Shown here: positions 12,340 through 40,397 of the stretch, piece by piece
Numbering within the stretch: the first letter of the stretch is position 1
Layout: the number at the start of each line of letters is the position of its first letter
NCBI GenBank assembly: GCA_001189075.1
Contig: LFCN01000006.1
Coordinates: 169,384 to 233,383, forward strand
Source: Parcubacteria bacterium C7867-004
GTDB lineage: Bacteria; Patescibacteriota; Minisyncoccia; Phycocordibacterales; Phycocordibacteraceae
Direction of reading: 5' to 3'
Length of the DNA: 64,000 nucleotides
Translations under genes and position numbers: made by a program
The notes under the pieces: model-generated
Told to the model about the DNA's origin: nothing
What the model saw: the letters and a program-made list of their open reading frames with translations, nothing else
Databases searched by the model: none

Positions 12340-12354
12340 TCAGCCATACTTTTT

Positions 12355-13805: not shown

Positions 13806-13808
13806 CCT

Positions 13809-15017
13809 ATGCTTTTCAATTACCACGCACTGGATACGGACGGGCACGAGCGTAACGGCACGGTCGAGGCGCTCTCCGTCGATATCGCCGTCTCGACGCT
13901 CCAGCGTCGGAATCTCATCGTCTCCTCTATAGAACCGGTAGCGAACAAGTCGATGTTCGCGCTCGATCTTACGTTCCTTAAGCGGGTCTCGAACAAGGAG
14001 GTAGTCATCCTTTCGCGCCAGATTGCGACGCTCTTCGAGGCGCAGGTTTCAGCGCTCCGCATATTCCGTCTGCTAGCGGCCGAGTCGGACAACAAGCATC
14101 TCGCCGAGATCATGACCCAAGTCGCCGACGATCTGCAGGGCGGAAGCCCGATCAGCCGCGCGCTCGGCAGGCACCCGAAGGTGTTCACTAGCTTCTATGT
14201 GAACATGGTGCGCTCTGGAGAGGAGTCCGGAAAGCTCTCTGAGACGTTCGGCTACCTTGCCGATTATCTCGATCGCACCTACGAGGTGGTAACCAAGGCG
14301 CAAAACGCGCTCATCTACCCGGCGTTCGTCATCGGGGTGTTCGTCATCGTGATGGGGCTCATGCTCACGCTCGTGATCCCGCGTATCAGCGCCATCCTCA
14401 AGGATTCGGGTCAGCCGATACCGCCGTATACGCAGGTGGTCATCCTCCTGTCCGATCTCCTCGTCCAGTACGGGTTGTTCATACTCATCGGTATGGCTAT
14501 CGCCGCGTTCGCTGCCTTCCGTTCGCTTAAGACGCCGTCCGGAAAGCTCTTCTTTGATGCCATAAAGCTCCAGTTCCCGTATGTCGGTGATCTCTATCAG
14601 AAGCTGTATCTCTCTCGCATCGCTGACAACTTCGCGACCATGCTCGTCTCGGGCGTTCCGGTCGTTGAAGCCATGGAGATAACGGCGTCGGTGGTGGGCA
14701 GTACCACGTACGAGAACATCCTTAAGGATGTGGGCGAGCAGGTCCGGGGAGGATCCTCGATATCTGATGCGCTCGCACGCCATGTGGAGATACCGGGCAT
14801 TATGACCGCCATGGTGCGTGTGGGTGAGGAGACAGGAGAGCTGGGGAACATTCTCAATACGCTCGCTAAGTTCTATCAGCGAGAAGTGTCGACGGCGGTT
14901 GATACGCTCGTGGACCTCATCGAACCACTTATGATCGTGCTTCTCGGACTCGGGGTGGGTACGCTGCTCGCGTCCGTGATGATCCCTATCTACAACCTCG
15001 CCGGTTCAATCGGATAA
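13809..15017 (+). CDS. pilC: Type IV pilus inner-membrane platform protein PilC (GspF family)
   Basis: Duplicated T2SSF-like domains with three TM segments. Confidence 0.85.
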   Translation: MLFNYHALDTDGHERNGTVEALSVDIAVSTLQRRNLIVSSIEPVANKSMFALDLTFLKRVSNKEVVILSRQIATLFEAQVSALRIFRLLAAESDNKHLAEIMTQVADDLQGGSPISRALGRHPKVFTSFYVNMVRSGEESGKLSETFGYLADYLDRTYEVVTKAQNALIYPAFVIGVFVIVMGLMLTLVIPRISAILKDSGQPIPPYTQVVILLSDLLVQYGLFILIGMAIAAFAAFRSLKTPSGKLFFDAIKLQFPYVGDLYQKLYLSRIADNFATMLVSGVPVVEAMEITASVVGSTTYENILKDVGEQVRGGSSISDALARHVEIPGIMTAMVRVGEETGELGNILNTLAKFYQREVSTAVDTLVDLIEPLMIVLLGLGVGTLLASVMIPIYNLAGSIG

Positions 15018-15083
15018 CCGCTCGGGCTCCAGCTTTCCTTCATGTTATCCACAGCCGGTATATATTCTTTGCCCTCTACCGCC

Positions 15084-15089
15084 TAGAAT
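15084..15089 (+). promoter_or_regulatory. Conserved TAGAAT -10-like box upstream of pilin gene 1
   Basis: The same hexamer recurs 44-57 nt upstream of each of the three pilin starts. Confidence 0.35.
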
Positions 15090-15145
15090 AAGGGGAGCGG
15101 ATACTTTACTTATAAGCCGCGGCACTTAACCTCACTATTATCTTT

Positions 15146-15538
15146 ATGAATCTCGGACACCTCAGCATGCGACGCGGCTTCACGCTCATCGAGCTCCTCG
15201 TCGTTATCGCTATCATCGGCATCCTCTCGTCGGTTGTGCTCGCACAGGCTGAAATCCTGTACGATACTGCTGGAAACTATGACAGCGTCTGTATTGACAC
15301 TGCCGGCGTTGTGAAGCAGCTTACTGCAGCATACGCCGCAGCAGGCGTAACATACGCGCTTACGTGCTATGACTCTGCAACTGCATGGGCAGCTGCAGCC
15401 CCTCTTAAGGGAGGAGGCGCATTCTGCGTCGATAGCACCGGAGTAGCACGATCGGTCACGGCAGCTAACGCTAACTACGTCGGAGTCACCGGTGTAGCTC
15501 CTGCAGCACTCGTATCTGCAGCAACGGCTTGTAACTAA
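15146..15538 (+). CDS. pilA: Type IV major pilin, copy 1
   Basis: Class III signal MNLGHLSMRRG|FTLIELLVVIAIIGILSSVVLA with Glu+5. C-terminal Cys pair (C…C) consistent with a disulfide loop. Confidence 0.8.
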   Translation: MNLGHLSMRRGFTLIELLVVIAIIGILSSVVLAQAEILYDTAGNYDSVCIDTAGVVKQLTAAYAAAGVTYALTCYDSATAWAAAAPLKGGGAFCVDSTGVARSVTAANANYVGVTGVAPAALVSAATACN

Positions 15539-15557
15539 TACTCTTAGTTGCAAACAC

Positions 15558-15588
15558 GAAAGCGGCCCTCCGGGGCCGCTTTTCGTAT
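15558..15588 (+). terminator. Rho-independent terminator after pilin 1
   Basis: aaagcggccc-tccg-gggccgcttttcg. Confidence 0.5.
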
Positions 15589-15622
15589 CCACATGCTCTT
15601 CATTGTCTGTTCACGCATGCGG

Positions 15623-15628
15623 TAGAAT
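15623..15628 (+). promoter_or_regulatory. TAGAAT -10-like box upstream of pilin copy 2
   Basis: tgcggtagaatg lies 52 nt upstream of ATG 15680. Confidence 0.35.
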
Positions 15629-15679
15629 GAAACCAAGGCATTTAAGACGCCGCAACAAATCACTTACTCTTATCATTCT

Positions 15680-16121
15680 ATGAATCTCGGACACCTCAGC
15701 ATGCGACGCGGCTTCACGCTCATCGAGCTCCTCGTCGTTATCGCTATCATCGGCATCCTCTCGTCGGTTGTGCTCGCCGGTTAGATCGAATATGGCGAGC
15801 GTTAGGCAGCAGGCGGAGTTAGTCTTCGACTCGAACAATTACAGCTACTTGGCGCCGACGAGCGTTTGCGCCGACACTACCATTGTTCGTCAGCTAACAG
15901 CTGCATACGCAGCGGCAGGCGTAACCTACACGCTTACGTGCGGAGCATCTGCGAGCGCGTGGGCAGCTGCAGCCCCTCTTAAGGGAGGAGGTGCATTCTG
16001 CGTCGATAGCACCGGAGCCGCAAAGACTACACAGGGTGTAGGTTCAACTGCGTACACCGCTGTTTCTGGTGCTGCTACTGCAGCGCTCACCACTGCCACA
16101 ACGGACTACGACTGCAACTAG
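15680..16121 (+). pseudogene. Type IV pilin paralog, copy 2, interrupted by a roughly 29-nt insertion carrying two in-frame TAG codons
   Basis: The N-terminal 34 codons are identical to copy 1 (MNLGHLSMRRGFTLIELLVVIAIIGILSSVVLA) and then hit TAG at 15782. The homologous downstream part (QQAELVFDSNNYSY…AAAPLKGGGAFCVDSTG…DYDCN) continues in another frame (15768..16121) with an internal ATG at 15792. Confidence 0.5.
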
Positions 16122-16144
16122 TCTTTCTTCTCCTCAATACGACA

Positions 16145-16173
16145 AGCGGTCCTGTATGGGCCGCTTTTCGTAT
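16145..16173 (+). terminator. Rho-independent terminator after pilin copy 2
   Basis: aagcggtcc-tgtat-gggccgcttttcg, with the same downstream cgtatccaca as after copy 1. Confidence 0.5.
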
Positions 16174-16207
16174 CCACACATAACAGACCCAAGCTGTCGG
16201 GGTAGGG

Positions 16208-16213
16208 TAGAAT
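16208..16213 (+). promoter_or_regulatory. TAGAAT -10-like box upstream of pilin copy 3
   Basis: gggtagaatg lies 44 nt upstream of ATG 16257. Confidence 0.35.
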
Positions 16214-16256
16214 GTACGTACGGTACCCACATCCTCACTAATTTCCTTACTCACCT

Positions 16257-16766
16257 ATGAATCTCCGGCATAAGGGTTTTACGCTCATCGAGCTCCTCGT
16301 CGTTATCGCTATCATCGGCATCCTCTCGTCGGTTGTGCTCGCTTCGCTTAACACCGCGCGAACGAAAGCGACCGATTCCTCGATAAAGTCGAACCTGAAC
16401 GGATTGCGCTCGCAGGCTGATATCTTCTACGACACGCGCAACTATTCTTACGCAGGAGGTACGGGAGTGGTCTCAACGGCAGCGACGTGCCTTGCTTCTG
16501 CATTCACAAACACGGCTACGAACTATACCCTCATGGGCGATAGCGTGTTCTTTGCCGGTATGAGTGCGGCACGAACTGCGAGCGGCGGGTTGTGCTACTA
16601 CCTCAACAATGCGAATAACTGGGCTCTTATCATTCAGCTGAAGGGTGATCTGACCAAGGCATGGTGCATAGACAGTTCAGGTAATGCGAAGCAGACGGCG
16701 GACGGAGCCGCGTATACCGGAACGACTATCGCGGGAGATATTTCAGGCGCAGTGTGCGGAACATAA
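16257..16766 (+). CDS. Type IV pilin, copy 3
   Basis: MNLRHKG|FTLIELLVVIAIIGILSSVVLASLNTARTKA classic prepilin N-terminus. The variable C-terminal domain contains Cys residues. Confidence 0.8.
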   Translation: MNLRHKGFTLIELLVVIAIIGILSSVVLASLNTARTKATDSSIKSNLNGLRSQADIFYDTRNYSYAGGTGVVSTAATCLASAFTNTATNYTLMGDSVFFAGMSAARTASGGLCYYLNNANNWALIIQLKGDLTKAWCIDSSGNAKQTADGAAYTGTTIAGDISGAVCGT

Positions 16767-16834
16767 ATGAGATTGATTAGTGCTGCGGCAACTGGCTCTC
16801 CAAGGGGAGCCAGTTGCGCGTTATACTGGTACGA

Positions 16835-17596
16835 ATGGATCCGCTCATGTATCTCATCGCCGGCGCGTTTGCAGTGCTCGGGGCAGTACTCGCGAGCTTC
16901 GTGGGGGTGGTGAGTGAGCGGGCGTACACCGGAACCTCCTGGGCGATCGGACGATCGAAGTGTGACTCGTGCGGAACGTTTCTAGAAGGGCTCGATCTTG
17001 TCCCGGTACTGTCGTGGCTCCTATCACTCGGGCGCTGTCGCCATTGCGCCGCTCGCGTGACGGCGGTGCATGCACTTTCGGAAGCTGTTCTCGGCGCATT
17101 GTTCGCACTCTCATACCTAACGCTTGGTCTTACGCTTCCTCTCCTCGCATTTCTCGCGGCACTCCTCGTCCTTACCTTCATCGTGCTCTATGATCTGCGA
17201 CATACTATCGTTCCGCCGCTCGCGTCAGGCCTGCTTATTCTGTTGTCGGTATTCTTTGCGGCCCTTACGAGCGAGAGCGTGGAGCGTTTCGGCCTCACGC
17301 TCCTCATTGCGGGCGTAATCGGTCTGGGCTTCTTTCTGCTGTTCGCGGGTTCCGGTGGCCGAGCTATGGGTCTGGGGGACAGTCCCGTTGCGCTCGCTCT
17401 CTCACTCCTCGTTGGAGGCGTCCTTGCGGTGTCCGGACTCCTGTTCTCGTTCTGGATCGGCGCGCTTGTAGGCGTTCTTATATTGGTTAGGCACCCGAAA
17501 GGGCATAGAATGGGTATCGAGGTGCCCTTCGTTCCGTTTCTCGCAGCGGGATATCTGCTCGCCTTCTTCACTCAATGGAACTTCCTCTCTTTCTAA
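16835..17596 (+). CDS. pilD: Prepilin peptidase PilD (A24 family) with N-terminal Zn-binding CxxC…CxxC
   Basis: CDSCGTFL…GRCRHCAARV tetracysteine motif and a multi-TM body with the active-site Asp context (DLRHTIVP…GLGDSPVA). The track ORF begins at 16814; ATG 16835 is preferred. Confidence 0.85.
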   Translation: MDPLMYLIAGAFAVLGAVLASFVGVVSERAYTGTSWAIGRSKCDSCGTFLEGLDLVPVLSWLLSLGRCRHCAARVTAVHALSEAVLGALFALSYLTLGLTLPLLAFLAALLVLTFIVLYDLRHTIVPPLASGLLILLSVFFAALTSESVERFGLTLLIAGVIGLGFFLLFAGSGGRAMGLGDSPVALALSLLVGGVLAVSGLLFSFWIGALVGVLILVRHPKGHRMGIEVPFVPFLAAGYLLAFFTQWNFLSF

Positions 17597-20685: not shown

Positions 20686-20721
20686 GCATTGGCGTTTTCG
20701 CAATATTGCGAAACGGCATAG

Positions 20722-22749
<2,028 letters not shown>

Positions 22750-22761
22750 TAGAGTAGCCGC

Positions 22762-23055
22762 ATGGCTACGAAAGAGGAGGTACAGAAGCTCGCATCGCTC
22801 TCTCGCATCGAGGTTCCCGAAGCGGATCTCGAGCGTTTTGCTGCCGAATTCGACTCGTTGATCGGGTACGTCGGAAAGCTTGATGAGCTCGAGCTTCCCG
22901 ATATGAAGGATATGAAGATCCCTGAGGTCCGGAATGTATTCCGCGAGGATGGGGAACCGGACGAGATCGGTGCGTGGACCGAAAAGCTCTTGGCGCAGTT
23001 CCCGGAGAAGGACGGGAATCTACTTTCGGTTAAGCAGATCATTTCACATGACTAA
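22762..23055 (+). CDS. gatC: Asp/Glu-tRNA amidotransferase subunit C
   Basis: 97 aa GatC-like protein. The stop overlaps the gatA start (ATGACTAA). Confidence 0.8.
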   Translation: MATKEEVQKLASLSRIEVPEADLERFAAEFDSLIGYVGKLDELELPDMKDMKIPEVRNVFREDGEPDEIGAWTEKLLAQFPEKDGNLLSVKQIISHD

Positions 23056-24481
23056 GCCCTTGAACGAGCTTTCCATAGCTGAGGCGGCGCATGGTTTGCG
23101 CGCAAAGGAGTTCACGGTTCGTGAGCTCTGGGATGCGTGCATTGGTGCTGCGAACGAGCGTAACGCGGAGCTGAACGCATATCTCGAACTCTTTGCGGCT
23201 GACGATGCGGCGATAGCGGCAGCGCAGGAGCGTATCGATCGCGAAGGGGATGCGGCACCGCTCCTCTGCGGCATACCGCTCGCGATGAAGGACAATATCC
23301 TCATAGACGGACATGTCGCGAGCGCGTCTTCGAAGATGCTCGCCAATTACACCGCGACCTATGACGCTACCGTAACGAAGAAGCTGAAAGAAGCAGGAGC
23401 ACTGTTCATCGGCCGCACGAACATGGACGAGTTCGCGATGGGTTCCTCTACCGAGCACTCCGCGTACGGCTCGTCGAAGAATCCGTATGACATCTCGCGC
23501 GTTCCCGGTGGTTCTTCAGGCGGTTCGGCGTCGGCTGTTGCCGGAAACATGGCTCTAGCTGCGCTCGGTACCGATACGGGAGGCTCCATCCGCCAGCCGG
23601 CTGCGCATACGGGACTTGTGGGCATGAAGCCTACCTACGGACGCATCTCGCGCAGCGGCCTCATCGCGCTTGGTAGCTCGCTCGATCAGGCAGGACCGCT
23701 TGCGAAGACCGTCGCGGACGCGAAAGCGATTTACGACGTGATGAAGGGTACCGATCCTCTCGACTCAACTACTATCGCCGACGACACGTATCCGCTTCAC
23801 GAGTCCGGAGAATCCCTTCGCATCGGCGTTCCGCGCCATCTGCTTGAAGAGGGACTCGACAGCGATGTCTGTGCGCGTTTCGACGAGACGCTCGAGCGCC
23901 TTACCGCTGCCGGACACACCCTCGTCGATGTCGAGCTTCCGACGAGCGAGTACGCGCTTCCCGCGTACTACGTCATCATGCCGGCAGAAGCCTCCGCGAA
24001 TCTCGCTCGTTTTGACGGTATCCGGTATGGCCATGCCCCGAGAGGGAAAACTCTTCTTGAGGACTACACCAAGAGCAAGACGGAAGGATTCGGTCCCGAG
24101 ACCATTCGCCGCATCCTGCTCGGCACCTTCGTGCTCTCTTCAGGCTATATCGATGCATACTACCGCAAGGCGGATAAGACGCGCGGAGTGCTCCGTGCCG
24201 AATACGATGCTGCGTTTACGTCGTGCGACGTTATCGCGTTCCCGACGACGCCCTCGCCTGCGTTCCGCTTCGGCGAGAAGTCGGATCCCGTTTCCATGTA
24301 CCTCGAGGATATCTTCACGGTTACCGCGAATCTTACCGGCATGCCTGCGATATCGGTTCCGATGGGTATGGTTGAGCGTGATGGAACACAGCTCCCGACC
24401 GGCATTCATTTCACCGCGCCGCACGGAGCTGACGACCTTCTGTTCAAAATAGGCGCAGTCGTAACCGGAGAGACGCTATAA
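23048..24481 (+). CDS. gatA: Asp/Glu-tRNA amidotransferase subunit A (amidase signature)
   Basis: GGSSGGSASAVA amidase signature with Ser-cisSer-Lys context. The start is corrected from 22934 to ATG 23048, which is coupled to the gatC stop. Confidence 0.9.
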   Translation: MTKPLNELSIAEAAHGLRAKEFTVRELWDACIGAANERNAELNAYLELFAADDAAIAAAQERIDREGDAAPLLCGIPLAMKDNILIDGHVASASSKMLANYTATYDATVTKKLKEAGALFIGRTNMDEFAMGSSTEHSAYGSSKNPYDISRVPGGSSGGSASAVAGNMALAALGTDTGGSIRQPAAHTGLVGMKPTYGRISRSGLIALGSSLDQAGPLAKTVADAKAIYDVMKGTDPLDSTTIADDTYPLHESGESLRIGVPRHLLEEGLDSDVCARFDETLERLTAAGHTLVDVELPTSEYALPAYYVIMPAEASANLARFDGIRYGHAPRGKTLLEDYTKSKTEGFGPETIRRILLGTFVLSSGYIDAYYRKADKTRGVLRAEYDAAFTSCDVIAFPTTPSPAFRFGEKSDPVSMYLEDIFTVTANLTGMPAISVPMGMVERDGTQLPTGIHFTAPHGADDLLFKIGAVVTGETL

Positions 24482-24485
24482 TCTG

Positions 24486-25082
24486 GTGATGGAAGAGACC
24501 GCGAGCGGGCCCATCAACTTCATCAACGTCGAATATTTCTTCCGCCTCCTCTATGAGGCGGTAACACAGCTACGAACCGGATCGTTCGGTGGAGATTGGC
24601 TGATGCTCGCTTCGACTATCTGGATGTTCGTGACGCTGATATCACTCGTGATCTCGGCAGCATTCCTCACGCTCCTCATCCACTCGCATTTCAGGCTGCA
24701 TCGAGTACTCGACGGAGAGGAGGATAATTTCTCGACGATACATCCCGAAGTAGCAGAAGTGACCCGCGATCATAATCGCTGGGGCCATATCCGTGCACTT
24801 ATCGAGAGTCCGCATGAGAACGACTGGCGCCAGGCGATCATCGAGGCGGATATCATGCTCGACGATCTGCTCTCCCAGCTGGGGTATCCGGGAGTGGGAG
24901 TGGGGGAGAAACTGCGCGCGGTTGATCCGAGTCGTTTCCGGACGCTGGATAATGCGTGGGAGGCGCATAAGGTGCGGAATGAGATAGCGCACCAGGGCAT
25001 GTCGACTCCGCTTGAAGAGCACCGGGCGCATCGCACCATCGCGCACTATGAGGCGGTGATGCGGGAGCACGGAGAGATTTAA
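24486..25082 (+). CDS. Membrane-anchored protein with a C-terminal HEPN-like Rx4H motif
   Basis: TM helices (WLMLASTIWMFVTLISLVISAAFLTLLIH) followed by a soluble domain ending …WEAHKVRNEIAHQG (R-x4-H). Confidence 0.45.
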   Translation: MMEETASGPINFINVEYFFRLLYEAVTQLRTGSFGGDWLMLASTIWMFVTLISLVISAAFLTLLIHSHFRLHRVLDGEEDNFSTIHPEVAEVTRDHNRWGHIRALIESPHENDWRQAIIEADIMLDDLLSQLGYPGVGVGEKLRAVDPSRFRTLDNAWEAHKVRNEIAHQGMSTPLEEHRAHRTIAHYEAVMREHGEI

Positions 25083-25136
25083 ATCTCCCTGCATACCAGT
25101 TGCAAGTTCAATAATAAGTAGTATATTGCTAGCTAT

Positions 25137-25206
25137 AGCGGGGTAGAGGAGAGGTACCTCGGGAGGCTCATAACCTCCAGACGCCGGTTCGATTCCGGCC
25201 CCCGCA
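25137..25206 (+). tRNA. tRNA-Met (CAT), initiator-like, no encoded CCA
   Basis: AGCGGGGTAGAGGAGAGGTACCTCGGGAGGCTCATAACCTCCAGACGCCGGTTCGATTCCGGCCCCCGCA. The 3' end …CCGGCCCCCGCAA matches bacterial fMet tRNA. Position 1 pairs with 72 as an unpaired A·A, and A11:U24 is present. Confidence 0.75.
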
Positions 25207-25210
25207 ACAA

Positions 25211-25250
25211 GATATAAGAAAACCGCCGAAAGGCGGTTTTCTTATATCTC
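25211..25250. terminator. 17-bp perfect palindrome terminator
   Basis: gatataagaaaaccgcc-gaaa-ggcggttttcttatatc. Confidence 0.55.
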
Positions 25251-25323
25251 TGTAGAAGCACAAATCCTCTTATGCAAATAGTCTGGCGTTTACATTGCAC
25301 CGATCATTGCTACAGTAATCTAT

Positions 25324-25854
25324 ATGAGCGAAGGACCAGGAAAATATTTCAATAAGGCACCGGTGCCTGAGAGACAGACGCAACAAGAATCTTCCGAGGG
25401 AGAGCGGACCAATCAGGCACTCGGGGAGTTTGCAGCAGCTTTTGGTTTAGATCAGGAAAGGGTCATTAAACACTTTGCGAGCCTGAGTTCAAGGAAAGGA
25501 CCCATGGAAGCAGTCGCTGATCTGTTTAGTGAGGCAGCGCATGTGCAGCATTATGGGCCTGCTGATGCTGGAAAGTATCAAAAGCTCGTTGTTGGGGCGC
25601 TCGGTCCCGGATACACCGCTCTGCTACCCACGCCAGGTCAAACGTTTGACCCAAACATTCACGAAGATACATCGACTGCCACTAAGCAGTGGGATCCGAA
25701 TACGCAGGCGGCATTTGTGCCAAAAATATTTAGTGTCATCTTGCCAGGCATCTCGGGCCCCGAAGGCAGTACGGTCAAAAGTTTGATCTCAACAAGTAGC
25801 AGTAGCTATAGTTTCCTTGCTCAAGAGAGATCCAATCGACGTAAGGCTGCTTAG
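25324..25854 (+). CDS. Hypothetical protein in a lower-GC islet
   Basis: 176 aa with no recognisable motif. Flanked by two near-identical palindromes. Confidence 0.4.
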   Translation: MSEGPGKYFNKAPVPERQTQQESSEGERTNQALGEFAAAFGLDQERVIKHFASLSSRKGPMEAVADLFSEAAHVQHYGPADAGKYQKLVVGALGPGYTALLPTPGQTFDPNIHEDTSTATKQWDPNTQAAFVPKIFSVILPGISGPEGSTVKSLISTSSSSYSFLAQERSNRRKAA

Positions 25855-25865
25855 TTTCGAAAGCA

Positions 25866-25908
25866 TGATAAGAGAAAACCGCCGAAAGGCGGTTTTCTCT
25901 TTATCATG
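25866..25908. terminator. Palindromic hairpin sharing the core of the 25211 hairpin
   Basis: atgataagagaaaaccgcc-gaaa-ggcggttttctctttatcat. Confidence 0.5.
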
Positions 25909-25982
25909 CTCCATGAGTTTTGTGTGGAGAGAAGGCTATCCACGAGACCGAGAATGCTACTATTCGTGTACGTATTTCTTTG

Positions 25983-27014
25983 ATGGGAAAAAGTATCTTT
26001 CTTAAGGGATCAAAGCAGCGACCCCGCGTTTCTTCGGAGTACCTGATCATTCCCAATAAATATTCTTTCCAGCTCATACAGAGCGTCAAGACACCGATCG
26101 CGACACCGGTCGCGCAGGAGGCGCATATCGCCGCTGCGGCTCCAGAACCTCTGGCGGCCGAAGCAGTTGCTCCGGTACTGGCTCAAGCGCCGCAGCAAGA
26201 GATTCCGAAAGTAACAGCCAAGCGCATCGAGCAAGAGCCGAAGACTGGCGTCGATGAAAGCAAGAGGCTCTTTCTCCGGCTTGCTGGGGTGGCGGGGCTC
26301 GGCGTGGTCGCGGCGACGGTGCTCCCCAAGAGCGCGCAGGCATATGTCATGGGAAGCTCGCCTACCTCAGGGGTCGTGGGGGTAAAGAACGCGGCCAATA
26401 CGCGTATCGATCCCGCTACAGAAGGTGGCAATCTCGCCTCAATAAAGACGAATACTGATCCGTTCAATGCCTCCGGAGCCGGCGGGTACGTGCGTCAGGA
26501 CTCCACCGGGACCATAGCGAAGGAAACCGGAGGGAATCTCGCGACCATCGCGGGGAAGGATTTCGCTACGCAGGCGACGCTCGCGGAGATCAAGGCGCAG
26601 ACCGACAAGTTCACCTTCAGTGGAAGCAACCTGCTCACATCGGGAGGCGGCGGAGGGGGAGGTGCGGTAACGGTCAACGACACGACCGATACGCAGATAA
26701 ACCCCGCGACCGACGACAGCGCGATGCTGCTGAGAAGGCTTGTGCGCCAAGTCGATTCGCTCGCTGTAGTCGACTCCGCGCAGCGCCAGAAGGTAACGAT
26801 CGATTCGATCACCGGTTCGCTCACGTTGAGCACCATTACGACGGTCGGTACGGTTACGGCTGTTACGACCGTATCGACGGTCACCACCGTCAGCACACTC
26901 ACGTCTGCAACCAACCTCGTTGCGCTCGGCGGCGTCGACGGTCGTTATCTACATATAGATACAGCGAGGAACATGTATGCTAACGGTATTCGCACGAATC
27001 TTCTGTTCTCCTAA
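25983..27014 (+). CDS. Membrane-anchored hypothetical protein with Tat-like signal-anchor and NLAxIKxxTDxF repeats
   Basis: KRLFLRLAGVAGLGVVAATVLPKSAQA hydrophobic segment about 95 aa from ATG 25983. Three repeats (NLASIKTNTDPF, NLATIAGKDF, TLAEIKAQTDKF), a poly-Gly stretch and a T/V-rich tail. The start is uncertain; the track gives 25920. Confidence 0.45.
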   Translation: MGKSIFLKGSKQRPRVSSEYLIIPNKYSFQLIQSVKTPIATPVAQEAHIAAAAPEPLAAEAVAPVLAQAPQQEIPKVTAKRIEQEPKTGVDESKRLFLRLAGVAGLGVVAATVLPKSAQAYVMGSSPTSGVVGVKNAANTRIDPATEGGNLASIKTNTDPFNASGAGGYVRQDSTGTIAKETGGNLATIAGKDFATQATLAEIKAQTDKFTFSGSNLLTSGGGGGGGAVTVNDTTDTQINPATDDSAMLLRRLVRQVDSLAVVDSAQRQKVTIDSITGSLTLSTITTVGTVTAVTTVSTVTTVSTLTSATNLVALGGVDGRYLHIDTARNMYANGIRTNLLFS

Positions 27015-27020
27015 TTTTGC

Positions 27021-29858
27021 ATGGCTGTTACCAACAATCTGAAGCCGCAAGTAGACCTCCCTGTCTGGGAGTGGTGCCGCTTTACGCCTACCGCAACTGT
27101 CGCCCTTTCAGGGATGGCCACAGCCGATGATGGTAGCGCTCGCTTTATCTATTACATCTCCGCTTCCTCGTTCTATCGATATGACACGTACGCCGATGCG
27201 TGGCAGCAGCTCGCGACTCCGAACACTGCTCCATTCGCGGCACTCTCGCTTAGGTATACCGGATTCCGTGGATACCACGGAAGGGTACTGAGTGCGGGCG
27301 CAACCAGCGTGCAGATCGGTGGACTCCGTGGAGCAACGCTCAACGGGAAGACCATAAAGATACTTAGTGGTCCAGGAATAGGCCAGGAGCGCGTACTCAC
27401 GTTCACTGGAGAGACCATCCACGATATGGGTGTGATCACGGCGACGACGACGCTCACGCTTGCTGATTCCACGAAGAAGTGGAAGTTCAATCAGTGGTCG
27501 GGATACGTCGTCGGTATCACGTTCGGCACGGACGCGACCCAATACAAGAAGATCCTCTATAACGATGCAACCACGCTGTATATCAGTGACGCGAACCTCC
27601 AGCCCCACGATCCCTGGAATAACCAGCCGTTCGCTGCGATAGCGCCGTATGCGCTCCCGGTCACGACCGCCGGTTCGCAAGCGCACTTCCAGATTATTTC
27701 CCAGACGTATTCGGTTGATGCGTGGACTGTACAGCCCGACTACCGTTCGAATTACACTACCAATACCGGCGGCGTATACCTATTCTCCGGCTCTAACTCC
27801 GCACCCTTTTTCACGCTCCAGTACTACGACATCATTCATGACTCGTGGCAGACCAAGACCTGTAACCAGGCACTGCTCGCCGCGACGCTCAGTACCGACT
27901 GTACGTTCGAGCGCATGGCCAAGACCGGTACCGCATTCCTCTCCTCCACGGCGACCGCAGGCGCGGCCCGTACGCTCACCGACTCCGTACAGACGATGAC
28001 CGTCGATCGGTATGCGAACTATCGCGTGCTCATAACGGGAGGAACTGGCATCGGCCAGAGCCGCAGGATCATCTGCAACACTGCGACCGTTTTCACGGTG
28101 AACAAGGCGTGGGACACGAATCCGGACGCCACTTCGACCTATGAGATATGGGGAGACTATGACAAGGCGTTCTTCTCCGGTCATGCTGGAGCAGCGATGC
28201 TTCAGTATTCACCTTCAAACGATTTCTGGATGCAGGGTGCCAGCTTCGATGACGGTGTGGTCGCGAACATCGGCGTGAAGATGAGCGGATGGGAAGCACT
28301 CGGTGTGACTACCGGCGCAAGGATCGCCGCGGGCGTGACAGCAGTGAATGCGACCCCGACTGCGGGAGGTACGGGATATTTGGTGGGTGACATCCTGACG
28401 TGTTCGGTGGGCGGTACGGCAGCCCGCGTCATCGTTACAGCCATAGCGCCGACTGGCATCGTGAGTACTATCGAGCTCGTCGCGGCGGGTACCGGCACGG
28501 GCTTTACGACCGGCACCGGTAAGGCGACGACTGGCGGCACCGGCTCCGGCTGCACCATCGAGATAACCTCAGTCGGCGCTACGTGTCTTGTCACTACCGC
28601 TTCCGCAAACTGGTTCAAGACCGGAGACTCAGTAACATTCTCCGGATGTTCTGACAGCGCCTATAACGTCGCACACACCATTCTCGGCGCGGGTTCCACT
28701 ACAACCTTTGATGTCGCGACCTCAGCGGCAGGTTCCATGGCCGCTTCGAACTCGCAGTCGACCACCGTAATCGTCGATGCGTCGAAGAGCTGGACCACGA
28801 ATGAGCATGTCGGAAAGCTCGTACATCTCTCGGTCGCAGGCACTGCTCCTACTGCGCAGATCCGATGGATAACCGCCAATACCGCGACCACACTTACAGT
28901 CGCGACCATAGTCGCGGGAGTGAACGGTACCTCGAAGTACGCTATCTATGATTCGAAAGTGTTCGGTACGGATAATCAGTTCAAGCCCGCCAACCAGCAG
29001 AACTGGGGTCATGCGTCCGGCGGCTCGACCACGACGCTCATCGACGCATCGAAGAGCTGGGTTGTGAATGCCTGGGCAGGGTACAAGCTCCGTATAGAAT
29101 CAGGAACAGGTTTTGCAACCGGCATAATCTCTATCACCTCGAACACAGCGACGACGCTCACCTATACCACCCAGGGATTCACGCCGGACGCGACGACACA
29201 CTACGAGATTGCCGACAGCTGGGGACTCATGACGGCGGCATCGACCACCACCGTAACCGAGACCACGACCAAGAACTGGACAACGAACATGTGGGCAGGA
29301 AAGAGGATTCGCATCACGGGCGGTACCTCGCCGGGGCAGGAGGTAGCGATAACATCGAACACCGCAACCGTCATAACGATGGCAACGGTAACGCTCCCTG
29401 ATACCACCTCTACCTATGCGATACTCGGTGCTCCAGCACGCGGTGCGGGTACTCAGCTTATATGGATATGGGGGAATTCAGACGCAACAACGAAAGGGAG
29501 GTTGATGCTTTCGCCACGAGGCGGCGCTTCGAACACGTTCGATCTCTATGACATACCGACCGCACGGTGGGTGTACGGCTATTTCATATCTCCCCAAGCC
29601 GAGACGTTCACGACAGGATCCATGTATGCGTATGACGGGGAGAATACCGTGTATCTCCAGAAAGACGCGACCGGAAGGGTGTTCGCGTACAATGTATCGA
29701 CCAATGCGGTCAGTGCGCTCGGTACGATCCCGTACGGTCATTCGACCGCTATCATCGGGAACCGAATGGAGATAGTCGAGACCACGGATGGTCTCAAGTA
29801 CCTCTACATGATGCGTCATACGGGATCCGAGATGTGGCGCATGCTCATCTTCTTTTAA
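27021..29858 (+). CDS. 945-aa repeat protein with five copies of a roughly 45-aa module
   Basis: Recurrent (T/L)(A/I/V)D(A/S)(S/T)K(K/S)W(T/K)(T/V)N…W(A/S)G…(I/L)…G(T/G)(G/A)…GQ…I…SNTATT(L/V)T(V/Y) blocks at about aa 145, 310, 600, 675 and 755. No signal peptide. Confidence 0.55.
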   Translation: MAVTNNLKPQVDLPVWEWCRFTPTATVALSGMATADDGSARFIYYISASSFYRYDTYADAWQQLATPNTAPFAALSLRYTGFRGYHGRVLSAGATSVQIGGLRGATLNGKTIKILSGPGIGQERVLTFTGETIHDMGVITATTTLTLADSTKKWKFNQWSGYVVGITFGTDATQYKKILYNDATTLYISDANLQPHDPWNNQPFAAIAPYALPVTTAGSQAHFQIISQTYSVDAWTVQPDYRSNYTTNTGGVYLFSGSNSAPFFTLQYYDIIHDSWQTKTCNQALLAATLSTDCTFERMAKTGTAFLSSTATAGAARTLTDSVQTMTVDRYANYRVLITGGTGIGQSRRIICNTATVFTVNKAWDTNPDATSTYEIWGDYDKAFFSGHAGAAMLQYSPSNDFWMQGASFDDGVVANIGVKMSGWEALGVTTGARIAAGVTAVNATPTAGGTGYLVGDILTCSVGGTAARVIVTAIAPTGIVSTIELVAAGTGTGFTTGTGKATTGGTGSGCTIEITSVGATCLVTTASANWFKTGDSVTFSGCSDSAYNVAHTILGAGSTTTFDVATSAAGSMAASNSQSTTVIVDASKSWTTNEHVGKLVHLSVAGTAPTAQIRWITANTATTLTVATIVAGVNGTSKYAIYDSKVFGTDNQFKPANQQNWGHASGGSTTTLIDASKSWVVNAWAGYKLRIESGTGFATGIISITSNTATTLTYTTQGFTPDATTHYEIADSWGLMTAASTTTVTETTTKNWTTNMWAGKRIRITGGTSPGQEVAITSNTATVITMATVTLPDTTSTYAILGAPARGAGTQLIWIWGNSDATTKGRLMLSPRGGASNTFDLYDIPTARWVYGYFISPQAETFTTGSMYAYDGENTVYLQKDATGRVFAYNVSTNAVSALGTIPYGHSTAIIGNRMEIVETTDGLKYLYMMRHTGSEMWRMLIFF

Positions 29859-29860
29859 TT

Positions 29861-30721
29861 ATGAATATTGATTACCTCACGCAGCTGCTCACGAACCGCC
29901 TCGCAGCCCTCGCGCTCTCCAAAGATCAGGCGTTCCAATCGGGCGACCTTGAGCGCATCAACCTGCTTGATGTGGAGATGGCAGAAGTAGAGAACACCCT
30001 CTCCCAGCTGCGCCTGCTCTCCAATATCACCATCGCGGCGGCTGTCGCGAACACTACTCCTGCGCAGATAGTCTCGACGGGACTCGATGCCGTTCAGAAC
30101 ATTGTTCAGGGACCTTCGGCGGGTGCCGTTATCAACGGCTACGATATCTCCGCGTATGCGACCGATCCGCTCTACGAGCAGAAAGTGCAGGGTATTCTCG
30201 ACGCGATGCCGGCCTTCGTTACCGCCGAAGATATCGATACCTATGTGCAGGAAGCGGCTCCTGGAAGTCCGGTGACCGGCGCGATGATACTTGCCGCTGC
30301 TTCTGAGAACTTGGTCGACTCCCGCCTCATGATGGCGATCATGCGTAACGATTCGCAATTTGGTACGCAGGGCGTCGGCGCGAGGACCAATAACCCGGGT
30401 AACGTCGGAAATACGGGCACTTCAGAGCAGATGTATCCTTCCTGGGACGAAGGCGTGCGTGCGGGCGCCGAGTGGCTCAGCCGTCATCGCGCGGTAGCTC
30501 CCGTTGCACAAGAGATCGTCATCGAGCCGGTTCCCGAACCAGCACCTACTCCCGCGCCTAAAAAGACCCGGAAGCTCAATATCAAGGTAGAGGAGGATCC
30601 CCGCGTAGATCCCATACCTCCTGTCGAGACCCCTATAGACATCGTTCCGGTTGAAGAGGTGCCGCAAGCGACCACTACCCCGGCCCTTCCTGAAGACCCG
30701 GCGACCACCACCCCCTCGTAG
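29861..30721 (+). CDS. Hypothetical protein with a Pro-rich C-terminal tail
   Basis: Start moved to ATG 29861, immediately after the upstream stop. Internal RTNNPGNVGNTG…YPSWDEGVRAGAEWL segment and a C-terminal PEPAPTPAP…PVEEVP low-complexity tail. Confidence 0.45.
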   Translation: MNIDYLTQLLTNRLAALALSKDQAFQSGDLERINLLDVEMAEVENTLSQLRLLSNITIAAAVANTTPAQIVSTGLDAVQNIVQGPSAGAVINGYDISAYATDPLYEQKVQGILDAMPAFVTAEDIDTYVQEAAPGSPVTGAMILAAASENLVDSRLMMAIMRNDSQFGTQGVGARTNNPGNVGNTGTSEQMYPSWDEGVRAGAEWLSRHRAVAPVAQEIVIEPVPEPAPTPAPKKTRKLNIKVEEDPRVDPIPPVETPIDIVPVEEVPQATTTPALPEDPATTTPS

Positions 30722-30743
30722 TCCGGCGTGAGATACTGGGGCC

Positions 30744-31475
30744 ATGGAGGAGATCGAGGTCTACATCGCTAAGTACGGGCATTACCTGGAGGAGATACGG
30801 AAGCGGATTTACCGCATCGTTATTGTCTATATCGTCGCGTTCCTCGCGGGACTCTTCTCGACGAATCTGTTCGTGCGCTTCTTCATAACGTATCTCAATG
30901 TCGATAACGTGACGATCGTCGCGACTTCGCCGTTTCAGCTGCTTGATCTGGCAATGAGTATCGGGTTCTTCCTTGCGACCATAGTAACCATCCCGTTCGC
31001 CATCCAACAGATCTATTCGTTCCTCAGTGGGGGACTGCTGCCGCACGAGCGAAGGATATTCTTCACACTTATCCCGCTCTCGGTGCTGCTGTTCCTCGTC
31101 GGTTTCACCTACGGGTTCGGGGTCATGTACTACGCGGTAGAGGTCATTGCGCAAGTGAACGTGAGCTTCGGGATAACTAACCTCTGGAACGTCAGCCATT
31201 TCATATCCCAGATGCTGATCACGGCGGCCCTGCTCGGCATGATATTCGAGTTCCCAATCATGCTCACGCTCCTCATACGCATCGGCCTCTTCCCGGTGTC
31301 CTTTTTACGCCGTAAAAGGCGCATTGCTATGGCCGCGATCTTCGTTTTTGTTGCTTTACTTCCCCCAACCGACGGGCTATCCTTTATGATAATGTCCTTG
31401 CCGCTCGTGGGGATATATGAGCTCACTATCGTGCTCAATTCCTTCTACAAGCGGAAAGAACCCTTAGAAACATAA
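30744..31475 (+). CDS. tatC: Twin-arginine translocase subunit TatC
   Basis: HLEEIRKRIYRIVIVYIVAF N-terminal signature with six TM helices. Confidence 0.85.
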   Translation: MEEIEVYIAKYGHYLEEIRKRIYRIVIVYIVAFLAGLFSTNLFVRFFITYLNVDNVTIVATSPFQLLDLAMSIGFFLATIVTIPFAIQQIYSFLSGGLLPHERRIFFTLIPLSVLLFLVGFTYGFGVMYYAVEVIAQVNVSFGITNLWNVSHFISQMLITAALLGMIFEFPIMLTLLIRIGLFPVSFLRRKRRIAMAAIFVFVALLPPTDGLSFMIMSLPLVGIYELTIVLNSFYKRKEPLET

Positions 31476-31487
31476 CTCTCGTCGCCT

Positions 31488-31655
31488 ATGTTCGGACTCG
31501 GATCAAATGAACTGATAATCATCGCAGTCATACTCGTGCTCCTCTTTGGTGCGACCCGCATCCCGGCGCTCACTAAGGGCATCGCGCAGGCAATTCGCGA
31601 GCTTCGCGGCGCGTTCAAGGACGAAGAGTTCAGCGACGAGAAGAAAAAGTCTTAG
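31488..31655 (+). CDS. tatA: Twin-arginine translocase subunit TatA/E
   Basis: MFGLGSNELIIIAVILVLLFGATRIP… followed by an amphipathic helix. 55 aa, below the ORF-track length cutoff. Confidence 0.7.
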   Translation: MFGLGSNELIIIAVILVLLFGATRIPALTKGIAQAIRELRGAFKDEEFSDEKKKS

Positions 31656-31789
31656 TCTCTCCTCCGAGGGACGGATTTTTGTATGAGATATCCGCCAGGA
31701 ATGGCGGGTATAGAGCGCTTCATGAACGTGCGATGATGCTAGAATCATATAGGTAGCGGCTTTCAGTAGGGAAGTGGTGGCGACGGTGC

Positions 31790-34700
31790 ATGAACCTATA
31801 TTTTTCGCATACAAAAACGAGCCGCTCTGCCGCACTATCGGTATTCTTCCCTGTGCTCTTCGCGGCGCTCATGGTTCCCGTCGGCGTCTTTGCCGACTAT
31901 CAGGAATACCTGCCGGGTACGGCAGTGAATATAGGGGAGTTCGTGTATGACGATGATTTCCAGGCGACCACCACGGCCAACTGCATCGTCACGGTCTATG
32001 ACCCGACGGGGGCGGTAGCGGTGAATGCGGCTGCGATGACGGCGACGGCCAACAGCTGGTATTCCTATTCGTTCACGCCGGACTCGATCGAAGGCACCTG
32101 GCCTTCAGAAATGTCCTGTGGTTCAGCGCTTTCAGGCGATCTCGTAAAAGGGGACAAGACATTCGTCGTAACGTCGAATATCGTCTCTTCTTCATCAGTA
32201 GCGGCCCTCGTGAATGCGAACACGAACACGGTAGTGGCATCCGCCAGCTCCTCGCTTGCGTCCACGCTTCCGGCGTCGATATGGAGCTACTCGGGGCGCA
32301 CGCTCACCTCGTTCGGTACGTTAGTTGCCGATATCTGGGCGAACGGCACGCGATCGCTCACCTCGGGCGTCGCTATTGCGAATGATATCTGGGCTGCAAC
32401 GACGCGCACTCTTACCGGAGCCGGACTCGACTCAGGCTCACTCGCCACGCAGTCTGACGTAACGACTGCTTCCTCATCTCTTGGAAGCGCCATAACGACT
32501 GAGACTGCGGCAGTTAATGCCAATACCAACGCAACGGTCGCAACCGCCTCAAGCTCGATTGCCGCAGTCGTAAACGCGAACACAAACACGCAGGTCCTCA
32601 CTGCTTCCACGTCACTCGGCTCGACGCTTGCTTCCATCGGCTCGAGCATAACGAATATCCCGACGGCGGTCTGGGCAGCAGGTACTCGTACACTCACGGG
32701 CTTTGGAACACTCGCGTCTGACGTATGGGTAAATGGAACACGCACCCTTACCGGAGCCGGGCTCGACTCGGGATCACTCGCAACGCAGTCTGACGTAACG
32801 ACCGCCTCTTCATCGCTCGGAAGCGCGATTGCGGCTGAGACATTGGCGGTCAACACCAACACAAATACGCAAGTCTTAACTGCTTCCACATCGCTTGGTT
32901 CAACCCTCACTTCGATTACCGGCTCGATTGCAGGTATACCTGCTGCTGTCTGGGCCGCGGGCACTCGCAGTCTAACGACATTCGGCACGCTCGCCTCTGA
33001 CGTATGGGCAAGCGGCACGAGGACGCTCACGGGCGCAGGGCTCTCGTCCGGCTCGCTCGCTACTCAGACTGACGTGACGACTGCTTCCTCGTCGCTCGGG
33101 AGCGCTATTACCGCCGAAACCGCCGCAGTTAACGCGAACACTAATGCAACCGTCCTTGCTGCGAGTACGTCACTTGCATCCAATATCAATGCAAACACGA
33201 ATCTTCAAGTCTTAACCGCTTCAACATCTCTAGGTTCAACCCTCACCTCAATTGCAGGTTCCATCACCGGTATTCCGGCGGCAGTCTGGGCCGCGGGATC
33301 TCGTACTCTCACCGGCTTCGGCACACTCGCATCTGATGTATGGTCTGTCGGTACCCGTACTCTTACTGGCGCAGGACTTTCGTCCGGTTCGCTTGCAACG
33401 CTTAGCGACGTAACAACCGCGTCTTCATCGCTCGGCTCTGCTATCACGGTTGAAACCGCTGCCGTGAATGCGAATACGAACTCTGCTATCGGTACGGCAA
33501 GTTCTTCGCTGGCCGCGGTTATTAACGCGAACACAAACACGCAGGTCCTCACGGCCTCCACCTCGCTCGGCTCAACACTCGCTTCGATCGGCTCCAGCAT
33601 AACGAATATTCCAACTGCGGTATGGGCGGCAGGAACTCGAAGCCTCACGACCTTTGGCACACTCGCATCTGATGTCTGGTCTGTCGGTACACGCACGCTC
33701 ACCGGCGCAGGTCTCTCCTCCGGCTCGCTCGCTACTCAGACTGACGTGACAACCGCGTCTTCCTCACTCGGAAGCGCTATTACGGCTGGCACCGTTGCGG
33801 TTAATGCGAACACGAATGCAACGGTTGCCAATGCATCAAGCTCGATCGCGGCTGTAGTGAACGCGAACACCAACACGCAGGTCCTCACCGCTTCATCCTC
33901 GCTCGGCGCATCCATAGCGGCTGTTCCACTCTCCGTCTGGAACGTCGCATCCTCTTCGCTCAATGTCGCCGGATCGATTGGAAAGCAACTCGCGCTTAAT
34001 GTTGACGCGGCGATTTCGAGTGTCACGGGAGGTGTCGGATCTCTCACTGCTGCCGACGTATGGTCATACGCGACGCGCACACTCACCGGAGCCGGCCTCG
34101 ACTCGGGATCACTCGCGACGCAGTCTGATGTAACCACCGCGTCCTCTTCGATCGCCGCCGTTGTTAACGGCAACACGAATACGCAGGTCGCAGCCGGAAC
34201 CGCGAGCGTGAACGGAACGATCGGAACCGCCTCGAGCTCGATTGCGGCTGTAGTGAACGCGAACACCAACACGCAGGTCCTCACCGCTTCTACCTCGATT
34301 GGCTCGACACTCTCTTCGATCGGTTCGAGCATAACGAATATCCCGACCGCGGTATGGGCAGCGGGCACCCGTACTCTCACCGGCTTCGGCACACTCGCAT
34401 CTGATGTATGGTCTGTCGGTACCCGCACCCTTACTGGCGCAGGACTATCAAGCGGTTCGCTCGCTACGCTTAGCGACGTAACGACCGCTTCGTCTTCGCT
34501 TGGAAGTGCTATTACGGCTGGAACCGCGAGCGTGAACGCGAACACGAATGCAACGGTGCTTACTGCGTCTTCTTCACTCGCAACGGTGATCAATGCGAAC
34601 ACCAACACGCAGGTTCTGACTGCTTCAACCTCTATCGGTTCGACCCTCACCTCGATTACCGGCTCAATCGCCGGTATTCCAGCGGCAGTCTGGGCCGCGG

Positions 34701-36031: not shown

Positions 36032-36033
36032 TC

Positions 36034-38336: not shown

Positions 38337-38359
38337 GTTCTATCATCAATTACTCAAAA

Positions 38360-40342: not shown

Positions 40343-40397
40343 AACTAGTGAATGGTAAATCAGGAATGATGCTACTAATATTTCTTTTAATTCAGAC

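Follow-up and report, generated by a model that had tools for sequence, protein, structure and literature searches.

Does a small membrane protein with a HEPN-type ribonuclease motif, encoded beside a tRNA gene in Parcubacteria bacterium C7867-004, belong to the defence repertoire of its host, or has it been put to some other use? The question is raised by gene X, which lies in the 64,000-nt stretch of contig LFCN01000006.1 analysed here (the window). The initial annotation suggested that it could be a single-gene system of the abortive infection (Abi) kind in an accessory locus. To answer it we consider the domain that gene X encodes, the chromosomal position and inheritance of the gene, its junction with the gene before it and the way in which the protein is placed in the membrane.

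Gene X and its C-terminal domain

The reading frame of gene X was confirmed as real. It opens with a GTG at 24486, giving 198 aa, directly followed in frame by an ATG at 24489, giving 197 aa and matching the start of the 197-aa protein AB199_01225 of Parcubacteria bacterium C7867-004. Residues are numbered here from the GTG. Coordinates of the gene, its neighbours and the segments of its protein are collected in Table 1.

Table 1. Gene X, the segments of its protein and its neighbours, in window coordinates
Feature	Position	Strand	Remarks
ligA, NAD-dependent DNA ligase	20731..22749	+	usually first in the conserved block; promoter-like site at 20697-20724
gatC	22762..23055	+	with gatA, invariant 5' neighbours of gene X
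gatA	23048..24481	+	Amidase, E 1e-136; directly 5' of gene X
TATAAT hexamer	24477..24482	+	spans the gatA stop codon; 6 nt before ATG 24489
gene X, membrane-anchored protein with predicted HEPN domain	24489..25082	+	197 aa; 100% identical to NCBI AB199_01225
N-terminal amphipathic helix, residues 15-31	24528..24578	+	F.N.EY.F..LY signature, conserved in short forms
single TM helix, ~residues 37-67	24594..24686	+	hydropathy >1.6 in this segment only
predicted cytoplasmic HEPN domain, residues 87-198	24744..25079	+	helices from AF2 model
Rx4H motif, R164-N165-E-I-A-H169	24975..24992	+	polar residue after R
tRNA-Met(CAT), presumed initiator type	25137..25208	+	55 nt downstream of gene X

The AF2 model of the protein, made with 28 homologs, has a mean pLDDT of 85.6, rising above 90 across residues 100-198, and contains the four-helix core that the HEPN claim calls for. 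Helix 1 covers residues 87-107, helix 2 residues 111-131, helix 3 residues 154-173 and helix 4 residues 178-194. Between helices 2 and 3 lies an insert (132-153) that includes a short helix at 139-145, and helix 4 is followed by a conserved tail, EHGEI in this protein and EF.[YF]I in the wider family. By the published definition, a HEPN domain has an insert between helices 2 and 3, helix 3 ends in an Rx4-6H motif whose arginine is directly followed by a polar residue (N, D or H), and helix 2 contributes a conserved acidic residue, commonly within Ex3[KR] (Anantharaman et al. 2013; PMC3710099). All four features are present in the gene X protein and are conserved over 150 representatives of clusters at 50% identity, each 30-49% identical to the window protein. 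The acidic residues of helix 2 are E120 and D122, both at least 90% conserved, with the exact Ex3[KR] spacing absent.

The motif lies in the C-terminal half of helix 3, within residues 158-171 (WEAHKVRNEIAHQG), one helical turn after the invariant H161. It had been described as ending the soluble domain; it stands 27 residues from the C-terminus, with helix 4 and the conserved tail still to come. The spacing of R and H had also been offered as a HEPN signature in itself. The protein contains 15 R and 13 H, and its shuffles contain R-x4-H in 64% of cases and R[NDH]x3H in 13%, so the bare pattern is not above chance in such an R/H-rich protein, and it is conservation alone that gives the motif its meaning. 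RNxxxH was found in 28/28, 149/150 and 18/18 aligned members and in 159 of 162 translated loci. Across the 150 representatives L125, H161 and R164 are invariant, and W99, W114, E120, D122, N165, H169 and G171 are conserved in at least 90%. Mean identity to the window protein is 65% in the HEPN domain and 30-35% in the N-terminus, TM segment and stalk. One subclade (loci L055-L057) has replaced H169 (‘AHNVRNQMAA’) and kept everything else, which suggests that catalysis by the canonical histidine is not needed in every member.

Database searches point to the same superfamily from below the usual thresholds. With the window protein as query, Pfam gave HEPN_Swt1 only (E 2.9, 8.6 bits against a cut-off of 27.5), NCBIfam, PADLOC and PHROGs gave no matches at all, and searches of PDB sequences with the single protein and two profiles found matches through the TM region only. 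When the 150 representatives were scanned one by one, the commonest Pfam families were HEPN_Swt1 (51/150, best E 1.5e-4) and HEPN_RiboL-PSP (25/150), and the other HEPN families matched were pEK499_p136 (in 7), DUF4145 (in 6) and Cthe2314 (in 3). The HMM comparison proposed at the outset therefore speaks for HEPN by which families are matched most often and not by score, as none of the 150 members reaches the gathering score of any curated HEPN model in Pfam. A Foldseek search of the PDB with the full-length model found nothing significant (best E 0.39), the score probably being diluted by the long TM helix. The structural similarities of the model also include Roquin, two MNT-HEPN toxins, YutE, Csx1 and Csm6, together with HI0074, the sacsin HEPN domain, AbiA and LsoA. 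As fold and motif are HEPN-like and all Pfam scores are sub-threshold, the protein is placed in the HEPN superfamily but in no defined family. Taken together, the predicted four-helix bundle with its insert, the RNxxxH motif late in helix 3, the acidic helix 2 and the sub-threshold HEPN matches support the original assignment and, as far as a model can tell, a domain of the Swt1/Abi2-like ‘RN..AH’ type.

Chromosomal position, inheritance and the defence reading

The surroundings of gene X are those of a conserved block and not, as had been supposed, of an accessory locus. A same-strand gatA gene lies directly upstream in all 137 scorable loci: 5/5 loci with called genes, 80/80 species-level loci and 52/52 divergent metagenome loci (27/27 with long and 25/25 with short forms of the protein), the last being those with enough upstream DNA, whose GatA proteins are 48-66% identical to that of the window. 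Individual look-up of the long-form contigs L086 and L087 also found gatA directly upstream. A gatC gene stands 5' of gatA in every contig reaching that far, and ligA is usually found 5' of gatC; L087 has recG instead.

The family is very large. It comprises more than 1,171 clusters at 90% identity and at least 2,663 at 50% identity with E <1e-3, of which 671 have E <1e-30, and occurs in at least 371 GTDB species genomes, while metagenomes contribute at least 566 loci. With two exceptions the source names are Patescibacteria, Paceibacterota, Parcubacteria, Kaiserbacteria and Minisyncoccia. The exceptions are a ‘Bacillota’ and a ‘Crocinitomicaceae’ label, each of which probably reflects a mis-binned contig. 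Some metagenome-assembled genomes with family members are labelled ‘uncultured Candidatus Saccharibacteria’, perhaps by default in the pipeline through which they were deposited.

Pairwise identities of the gene X protein correlate with those of GatA (Mantel r 0.55, with 0/999 permutations as high) and with those of LigA (Pearson r 0.70), while GatA and LigA correlate with each other at 0.44. The protein thus tracks GatA and LigA at least as well as these track one another. Searches of 50,697 phage records, 72,556 plasmids and IMG/VR yielded no relatives of gene X, and the 64-kb window holds no second copy. The fixed locus, the co-divergence, the single copy and the lack of phage, plasmid or viral relatives identify gene X as a vertically inherited core gene of the Paceibacteria (the former Parcubacteria/OD1).

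These observations bear directly on the defence reading, in which a HEPN RNase at an accessory or defence locus near a tRNA would be unleashed by phage infection. The fold with its conserved RNxxxH is what such a toxin would be expected to have, and most prokaryotic HEPN proteins are toxins of conflict systems (PMC3710099). Defence-type genes also occur in the vicinity in some relatives: a recombinase and a CBASS SMODS gene lie in the variable downstream DNA of two loci (L004/L005), and HicAB lies within the block of a third (L003). Against this stand the invariant position after gatA, the shared divergence with GatA and LigA, the single copy per locus, and the empty searches of defence-system and phage-protein models and of mobile and viral DNA. 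The 65% identity of the HEPN domain suggests strong purifying selection, unlike that of fast-evolving toxins. That no cognate antitoxin or partner gene is obvious was correctly noted at the start and holds for the loci with called genes, which have gatA upstream and either a tRNA or variable genes downstream; it counts against a toxin. It had been stated beforehand that a conserved housekeeping membrane protein would speak against defence, and on the evolutionary side this is what was found, with gene X occurring lineage-wide and always after gatC-gatA. The Abi-like reading is accordingly extremely improbable and can be regarded as essentially excluded.

The DNA on the other side of gene X had contributed to the suspicion of an accessory locus. 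The gene does lie just upstream of a tRNA-fMet gene, as part of a block that is conserved in many genomes, so the tRNA is no marker of an island. The lower-GC cassette reported to follow shrinks to about 1 kb (25.0-26.0 kb, GC 0.49), made up of the tRNA, a spacer and a 176-aa ORF flanked by two copies of a 35-nt terminator-like hairpin (repeat family D12); from 26 to 38 kb the GC content is at genome level (0.53-0.61). Variable DNA is nevertheless close by. In relatives, homologs of the genes at 38.3-42.7 kb are found 2-4 kb downstream of gene X, and the ORFs at 25.9-38.3 kb have none there, which makes the ~12.5 kb after the tRNA lineage-specific. This stretch encodes large surface-type proteins, a glucosaminidase, TatC and a 1,413-aa dockerin/MG2 repeat protein. 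Integration at the tRNA was considered and set aside, as no att-like repeat of the tRNA 3' end, integrase, phage families or GC deviation accompany the block. The stretch is particular to this lineage without being recognisably mobile, it shows neither a mobile-element nor a defence signature, and gene X lies on the conserved side of the boundary.

The junction with gatA and the tRNA downstream

The constancy of the gatC-gatA-X order invites the thought that gene X works with its neighbours. Its product could tether the transamidosome to the membrane or regulate it, or could be a nuclease acting on tRNAs linked to that pathway. The order is absolute even though GatA is only ~50% identical between loci and ligA and the downstream genes vary. 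A GatB probe, validated by Pfam GatB_N (E 1e-122), found no gatB in the window and none within 3.5-5 kb in ~165 loci, which leaves gene X in the slot that gatB takes in canonical gatCAB operons. A tRNA gene is often found downstream, and several HEPN RNases cut tRNAs, among them PrrC, RloC and the MNT-HEPN toxins. The protein itself bears no structural similarity to GatB, and we rejected it as a GatB surrogate, for which it is also far too small.

The junction between the two genes offers another explanation for their adjacency. In the window 7 nt separate the gatA stop codon (TAA, 24479-24481) from the ATG of gene X, and over the family the median distance from stop to start is 8 nt. A Shine-Dalgarno-like motif precedes gene X in only 28 of 147 loci. 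What is found instead is the TATAAT hexamer over the gatA stop codon, from which the expected +1 is the A of ATG 24489. The geometry suggests that the hexamer is the -10 box of a leaderless transcript and that gene X would have its own promoter; the position of the hexamer also supports the ATG as the start codon. We looked for TATAAT or TATACT, with at least 5/6 positions matching and ending 5-9 nt 5' of the start codon. Such a hexamer occurs at the start of gene X in 99/160 loci (62%), of ligA in 33/64 (52%), of gatC in 21/119 (18%) and of gatA in 5/125 (4%), and at random positions in the same loci in 2.6%. It is retained where gatA ends 50-70 nt earlier (loci L023, L025 and L026), which argues that it is a signal of gene X and not just coding sequence for the C-terminus of GatA.

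If so, the overlap of this signal with the end of gatA could by itself lock the two genes together, and the case for a common function from a common operon is weakened. The tRNA gene, too, has a promoter-like site of its own (TTGCAA-16-TATATT, 25100-25127), and it is followed by a GC-rich hairpin and T-run at ~25221-25245. We consider a partnership with GatCA(B) quite unlikely.

The tRNA has an A1.A72 mismatch, A11:U24 and G30:C40/G31:C39, and from the identity elements of bacterial initiators we take it to be of the initiator type. A tRNA-Met gene lies within 700 nt after gene X in 47/80 and 42/75 loci, a common order being tRNA-Met, tRNA-Met, tRNA-Asp. The idea that gene X processes a co-transcribed tRNA-fMet was weakened by the promoter-like site of the tRNA and by the transcript that gene X seems to start for itself; in many loci tRNA-Met is absent or on the opposite strand, which also counts against it.

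Membrane topology and possible function

The initial annotation gave the protein several N-terminal TM helices. Hydropathy and the model agree on a single one: the model has one long helix (residues 36-82) comprising the TM segment and a cytoplasmic stalk that ends at residue 82, and the helix at 15-31 is amphipathic, with Kyte-Doolittle values of 0.2-0.6. The latter belongs to one of the most conserved stretches of the family, [HN]F[LI]N[VIL]EY[FLI]F, and would be extracytoplasmic or sit at the membrane interface. Two K/R residues flank the TM helix of short forms on either side, so the positive-inside rule is uninformative.

Orientation is suggested instead by the long forms. Many members of the family are 240-689 aa long and run from a K-rich N-terminus through a first TM helix, one to three modules, a second TM helix and a stalk to the same HEPN domain. 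The modules are all-beta, carry the signature G.RWW.V.F...DGWV and match the SH3b domains with which autolysins, endolysins and InlB bind the cell wall. With SH3b modules placed outside the cytoplasm, the HEPN domain comes to lie inside it. By homology the short forms would likewise have their N-terminus outside and their C-terminus inside. SH3b modules between two TM helices amount to a receptor-like layout.

On balance we lean, with modest confidence, towards reading gene X as a core gene for a single-pass inner-membrane protein whose cytoplasmic HEPN domain is a putative constitutive, membrane-tethered endoribonuclease, probably controlled by dimerisation. Both RNase activity and dimerisation are inferred from what is established for the superfamily, whose RNases cleave RNA without metal at a composite active site built across a dimer (PMC3710099). 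The protein would then be a metal-independent endoribonuclease held at the inner face of the membrane. Since a HEPN active site spans the dimer interface, cleavage would be gated by the TM and stalk helices as they pair two copies. A single-pass anchor combined with a varying outer part suggests that lateral association of two chains is the gate, the input coming in short forms from the conserved 36-residue N-terminal amphipathic segment and in long forms from the one to three extracellular SH3b modules. This scheme is the one proposed in 2013 for membrane-associated bacterial HEPN proteins, which are predicted to be stimulus-dependent RNases (PMC3710099), and it is analogous to Ire1. The output might be membrane-proximal processing or decay of RNA, either constitutive or responsive to the envelope. 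As substrates, tRNAs or translation-related RNAs would be no more than a first guess, made because the gatC-gatA/tRNA-fMet neighbourhood is fixed. An uninhibited, constitutive HEPN RNase would be expected to harm the cell unless it is specific or gated, and gating is here assumed; this counts against the reading.

The closest precedent is the Abi2/Swt1 group of Anantharaman et al. (2013; PMC3710099). In both cases a HEPN domain with an intact catalytic motif follows directly on a single TM helix, and the same logic has been proposed, in which a stimulus at the surface or membrane leads to RNA cleavage at the inner membrane face; the best sub-threshold Pfam similarity of gene X is also to HEPN_Swt1. 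The 2013 group has a conserved globular all-alpha domain ahead of the TM helix. Gene X proteins have instead either the 36-residue amphipathic segment, with its one 17-residue helix, or a first TM helix and all-beta SH3b repeats, and unlike that group they are confined to Paceibacteria, core and locked to gatC-gatA. No experimental characterisation of the 2013 membrane-HEPN groups was found in the literature searched. The MNT-HEPN/HepN toxins (SO_3166, PDB 5yep; 7ae2, 8xdj) and the AF0298-type HEPN protein (2hsb) carry Rx4-6H in the equivalent helix, as gene X does. The toxins are soluble, sporadic and mobile, with an MNT antitoxin gene alongside, whereas gene X is inherited vertically, stands without a partner gene and encodes a TM anchor; its sequence is only 8-12% identical to these proteins.

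The HEPN domain might also have a non-catalytic role. It could serve as a membrane-bound RNA- or nucleotide-binding module for localisation or regulation, in the manner of sacsin, the KNTase C-terminal domain or MtlR-type proteins. The conserved C-terminal tail looks like a docking peptide, and the L055-L057 subclade does without H169, as a non-catalytic scaffold might. Non-catalytic HEPN families, on the other hand, typically lack Rx4-6H (PMC3710099), and gene X proteins always have R164 and retain N165 and H169 in >98% of sequences, so a scaffold appears unlikely.

A second non-catalytic possibility is a face-to-back ring that conducts ions or small molecules, with RNxxxH at the interfaces, as in Csx28, an accessory protein of type VI-B2 CRISPR systems. 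Csx28 is encoded next to cas13b and has a divergent motif; eight protomers join face to back in a pore that does not act as a nuclease. It shares the gross architecture of gene X, an N-terminal TM helix and a cytoplasmic four-helix HEPN-like bundle at a similar size (~190 aa), its motif residues build the protomer interfaces, and the loss of H169 in the L055-L057 subclade with all else conserved would be compatible with such a role. The gene X motif is, in contrast, canonical and nearly invariant (R-N-x3-H with an acidic helix 2), and its predicted structure is closer to canonical HEPN domains than to Csx28. No cas13b or other cas gene was found among the called neighbours of the seven loci with Pfam-annotated genes, and an open pore, constitutively expressed, would be lethal. 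This alternative strikes us as very unlikely.

Ire1 is a membrane sensor-RNase that is activated through oligomerisation, and a bolder form of the RNase reading is that a transmembrane device of this kind is universal in Paceibacteria. The SH3b modules of long forms, or the conserved amphipathic helix of short ones, would be a sensor reporting the state of the cell wall, the membrane or host contact across one TM helix. It would drive HEPN dimerisation, and the cleavage of RNAs, possibly tRNAs or translation-related transcripts, would tune translation in these reduced, host-dependent cells. We hold this extension to be tentative and rather doubtful. Its likeness to Ire1 and RNase L (the KEN proteins) is one of function only, in that a single-pass protein couples a sensor on the far side to a cytoplasmic HEPN-superfamily RNase activated by oligomerisation (PMC3710099). 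Unlike them, gene X is bacterial, has no detectable sequence relation to KEN and has SH3b modules or a short helix as ectodomain. No kinase Pfam match was found in it, and its 198 aa, with a stalk of ~20 residues, leave no room for a kinase or pseudokinase domain.

No earlier description of the gene X family was found in the literature searched, and it falls outside all Pfam, NCBIfam and PADLOC models. The family is new, and it appears to be an unusual, domesticated variant of the predicted, uncharacterised membrane-associated bacterial HEPN RNases. For genome scans it carries a caution, namely that a HEPN motif beside a tRNA does not on its own indicate a defence locus. Almost all characterised prokaryotic HEPN proteins are weapons, acting as toxins, Abi effectors or CRISPR effectors. 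Gene X appears to be a HEPN protein that has been domesticated, a single-copy core gene inherited vertically across a class-level lineage of ultra-small bacteria with reduced genomes, where any gene that has been kept carries information. Should it prove to be an active RNase, it would represent a lineage-specific part of RNA metabolism, or of signalling from the envelope to translation, in poorly understood organisms, and a bacterial counterpart in design of the Ire1-type receptors. The SH3b-bearing variants provide a natural handle on the input signal.

Composition of the block and a variant of the motif

A validated GatB probe detected no gatB in the 64-kb window, nor within 3.5–5 kb in about 165 related loci (L001–L167), so that gatB never adjoins gatC–gatA in the loci examined (20731–25082 here, and L001–L167) and its canonical slot is taken by the HEPN gene. 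In one subclade of the HEPN protein (L055, L056 and L057; gene at about 3980–4603) the motif histidine is lost, AHNVRNQMAA replacing AHKVRNxIAH, and the tail is 2 residues longer, ending in TIDV or TIDA. These proteins nevertheless retain H161, R164, N165 and the acidic residues of helix 2, and their genes still adjoin gatA.

The block is specific to Paceibacteria, and occurs under other names in one ‘Bacillota’ MAG contig (L028), one ‘Crocinitomicaceae’ protein (P0287) and many MAGs, several of the L0xx loci among them, whose records are titled ‘uncultured Candidatus Saccharibacteria’. Such labels in public records are probably taxonomic mislabels.

Variable DNA around the block

Features of the window around the block
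Feature	Position	Detail
Type IV pilus/type II secretion-like cluster	10585-17596	two T2SSE ATPases, T2SSF, prepilin peptidase A24
Hexamer and start, ligA	20719-20733
Hexamer and start, HEPN gene	24477-24491
Hairpin, first copy	25208-25242
Hexamer and start, ORF 25324	25311-25326
Small ORF	25324-25854	176 aa, low GC
Hairpin, second copy	25864-25898
Lineage-specific segment	25900-38340	about 12.5 kb
ORF	within 25900-38340	364 aa
T/G-rich ORF	within 25900-38340	945 aa
Glucosaminidase	29834-30721
TatC	30744-31475
Dockerin/MG2 protein	31790-36031	1,413 aa, dockerin C-terminal
Tandem repeats in the dockerin/MG2 ORF	32300-35110	about eight
Two ORFs	within 25900-38340	285 aa, 481 aa
Histidine kinase	38360-40342	minus strand
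Second tRNA-Met and tRNA-Asp	42707-42938

Upstream, the pilus-like cluster precedes ligA, as do prepilin-like N_methyl genes in four relatives (L002–L005). Other genomes do have mobile or defense genes around the conserved block. In L003 (2695–3131) an inserted HicAB pair separates ligA from gatC, and in L004 (7264–8592) and L005 (7790–10606) the DNA downstream of the HEPN gene carries serine recombinases and a CBASS-like SMODS/AGS_C gene. The region beyond the HEPN gene and the tRNA therefore appears to be a hot spot of variable sequence.

In the window the small ORF is flanked by two copies, 91% identical, of a 35-nt direct repeat forming a terminator-like hairpin, AAAACCGCCGAAAGGCGGTTTT. 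The product of the ORF matched no family, and a homolog (55% identical) stands directly after the HEPN gene in Parcubacteria C7867-008 (L050). The lineage-specific segment, just beyond the tRNA-fMet, has no counterpart downstream of the HEPN gene in any related locus, and contains no integrase, att repeat, phage family match or GC shift. The repeats of its dockerin/MG2 ORF are diverged (60–90% identity), with a period of ∼336 nt (112 aa). The genes at 38.3–42.7 kb do have such counterparts. Strongly low-GC DNA (0.39–0.47) is confined to 38000–42000, and as the histidine kinase and its neighbors there are syntenic with relatives, low GC here marks conserved rather than foreign DNA.

Many divergent relatives (L133, L142, L149, L159, L160 and L162) have two tRNA-Met genes and then a tRNA-Asp gene after the HEPN gene, but in the window the tRNA-Asp and the second tRNA-Met are 17.5 kb away. 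This second tRNA-Met has a standard G1:C72 pair and is thus of elongator or Ile2 type. An ancestral tRNA cluster that was broken up by insertion or rearrangement of DNA would fit this arrangement.

Hexamers before start codons

At the HEPN gene, ligA and ORF 25324 a TATAAT-like hexamer ends 6–7 nt upstream of the ATG, and 12 of the 56 long frames of the window have this geometry. Of 160 related loci, 62% retain the hexamer at the HEPN gene; the background frequency is 2.6%. The position of the hexamer at these three genes, together with its conservation at the HEPN gene, suggests that the first genes of transcription units in these bacteria are expressed as leaderless mRNAs.
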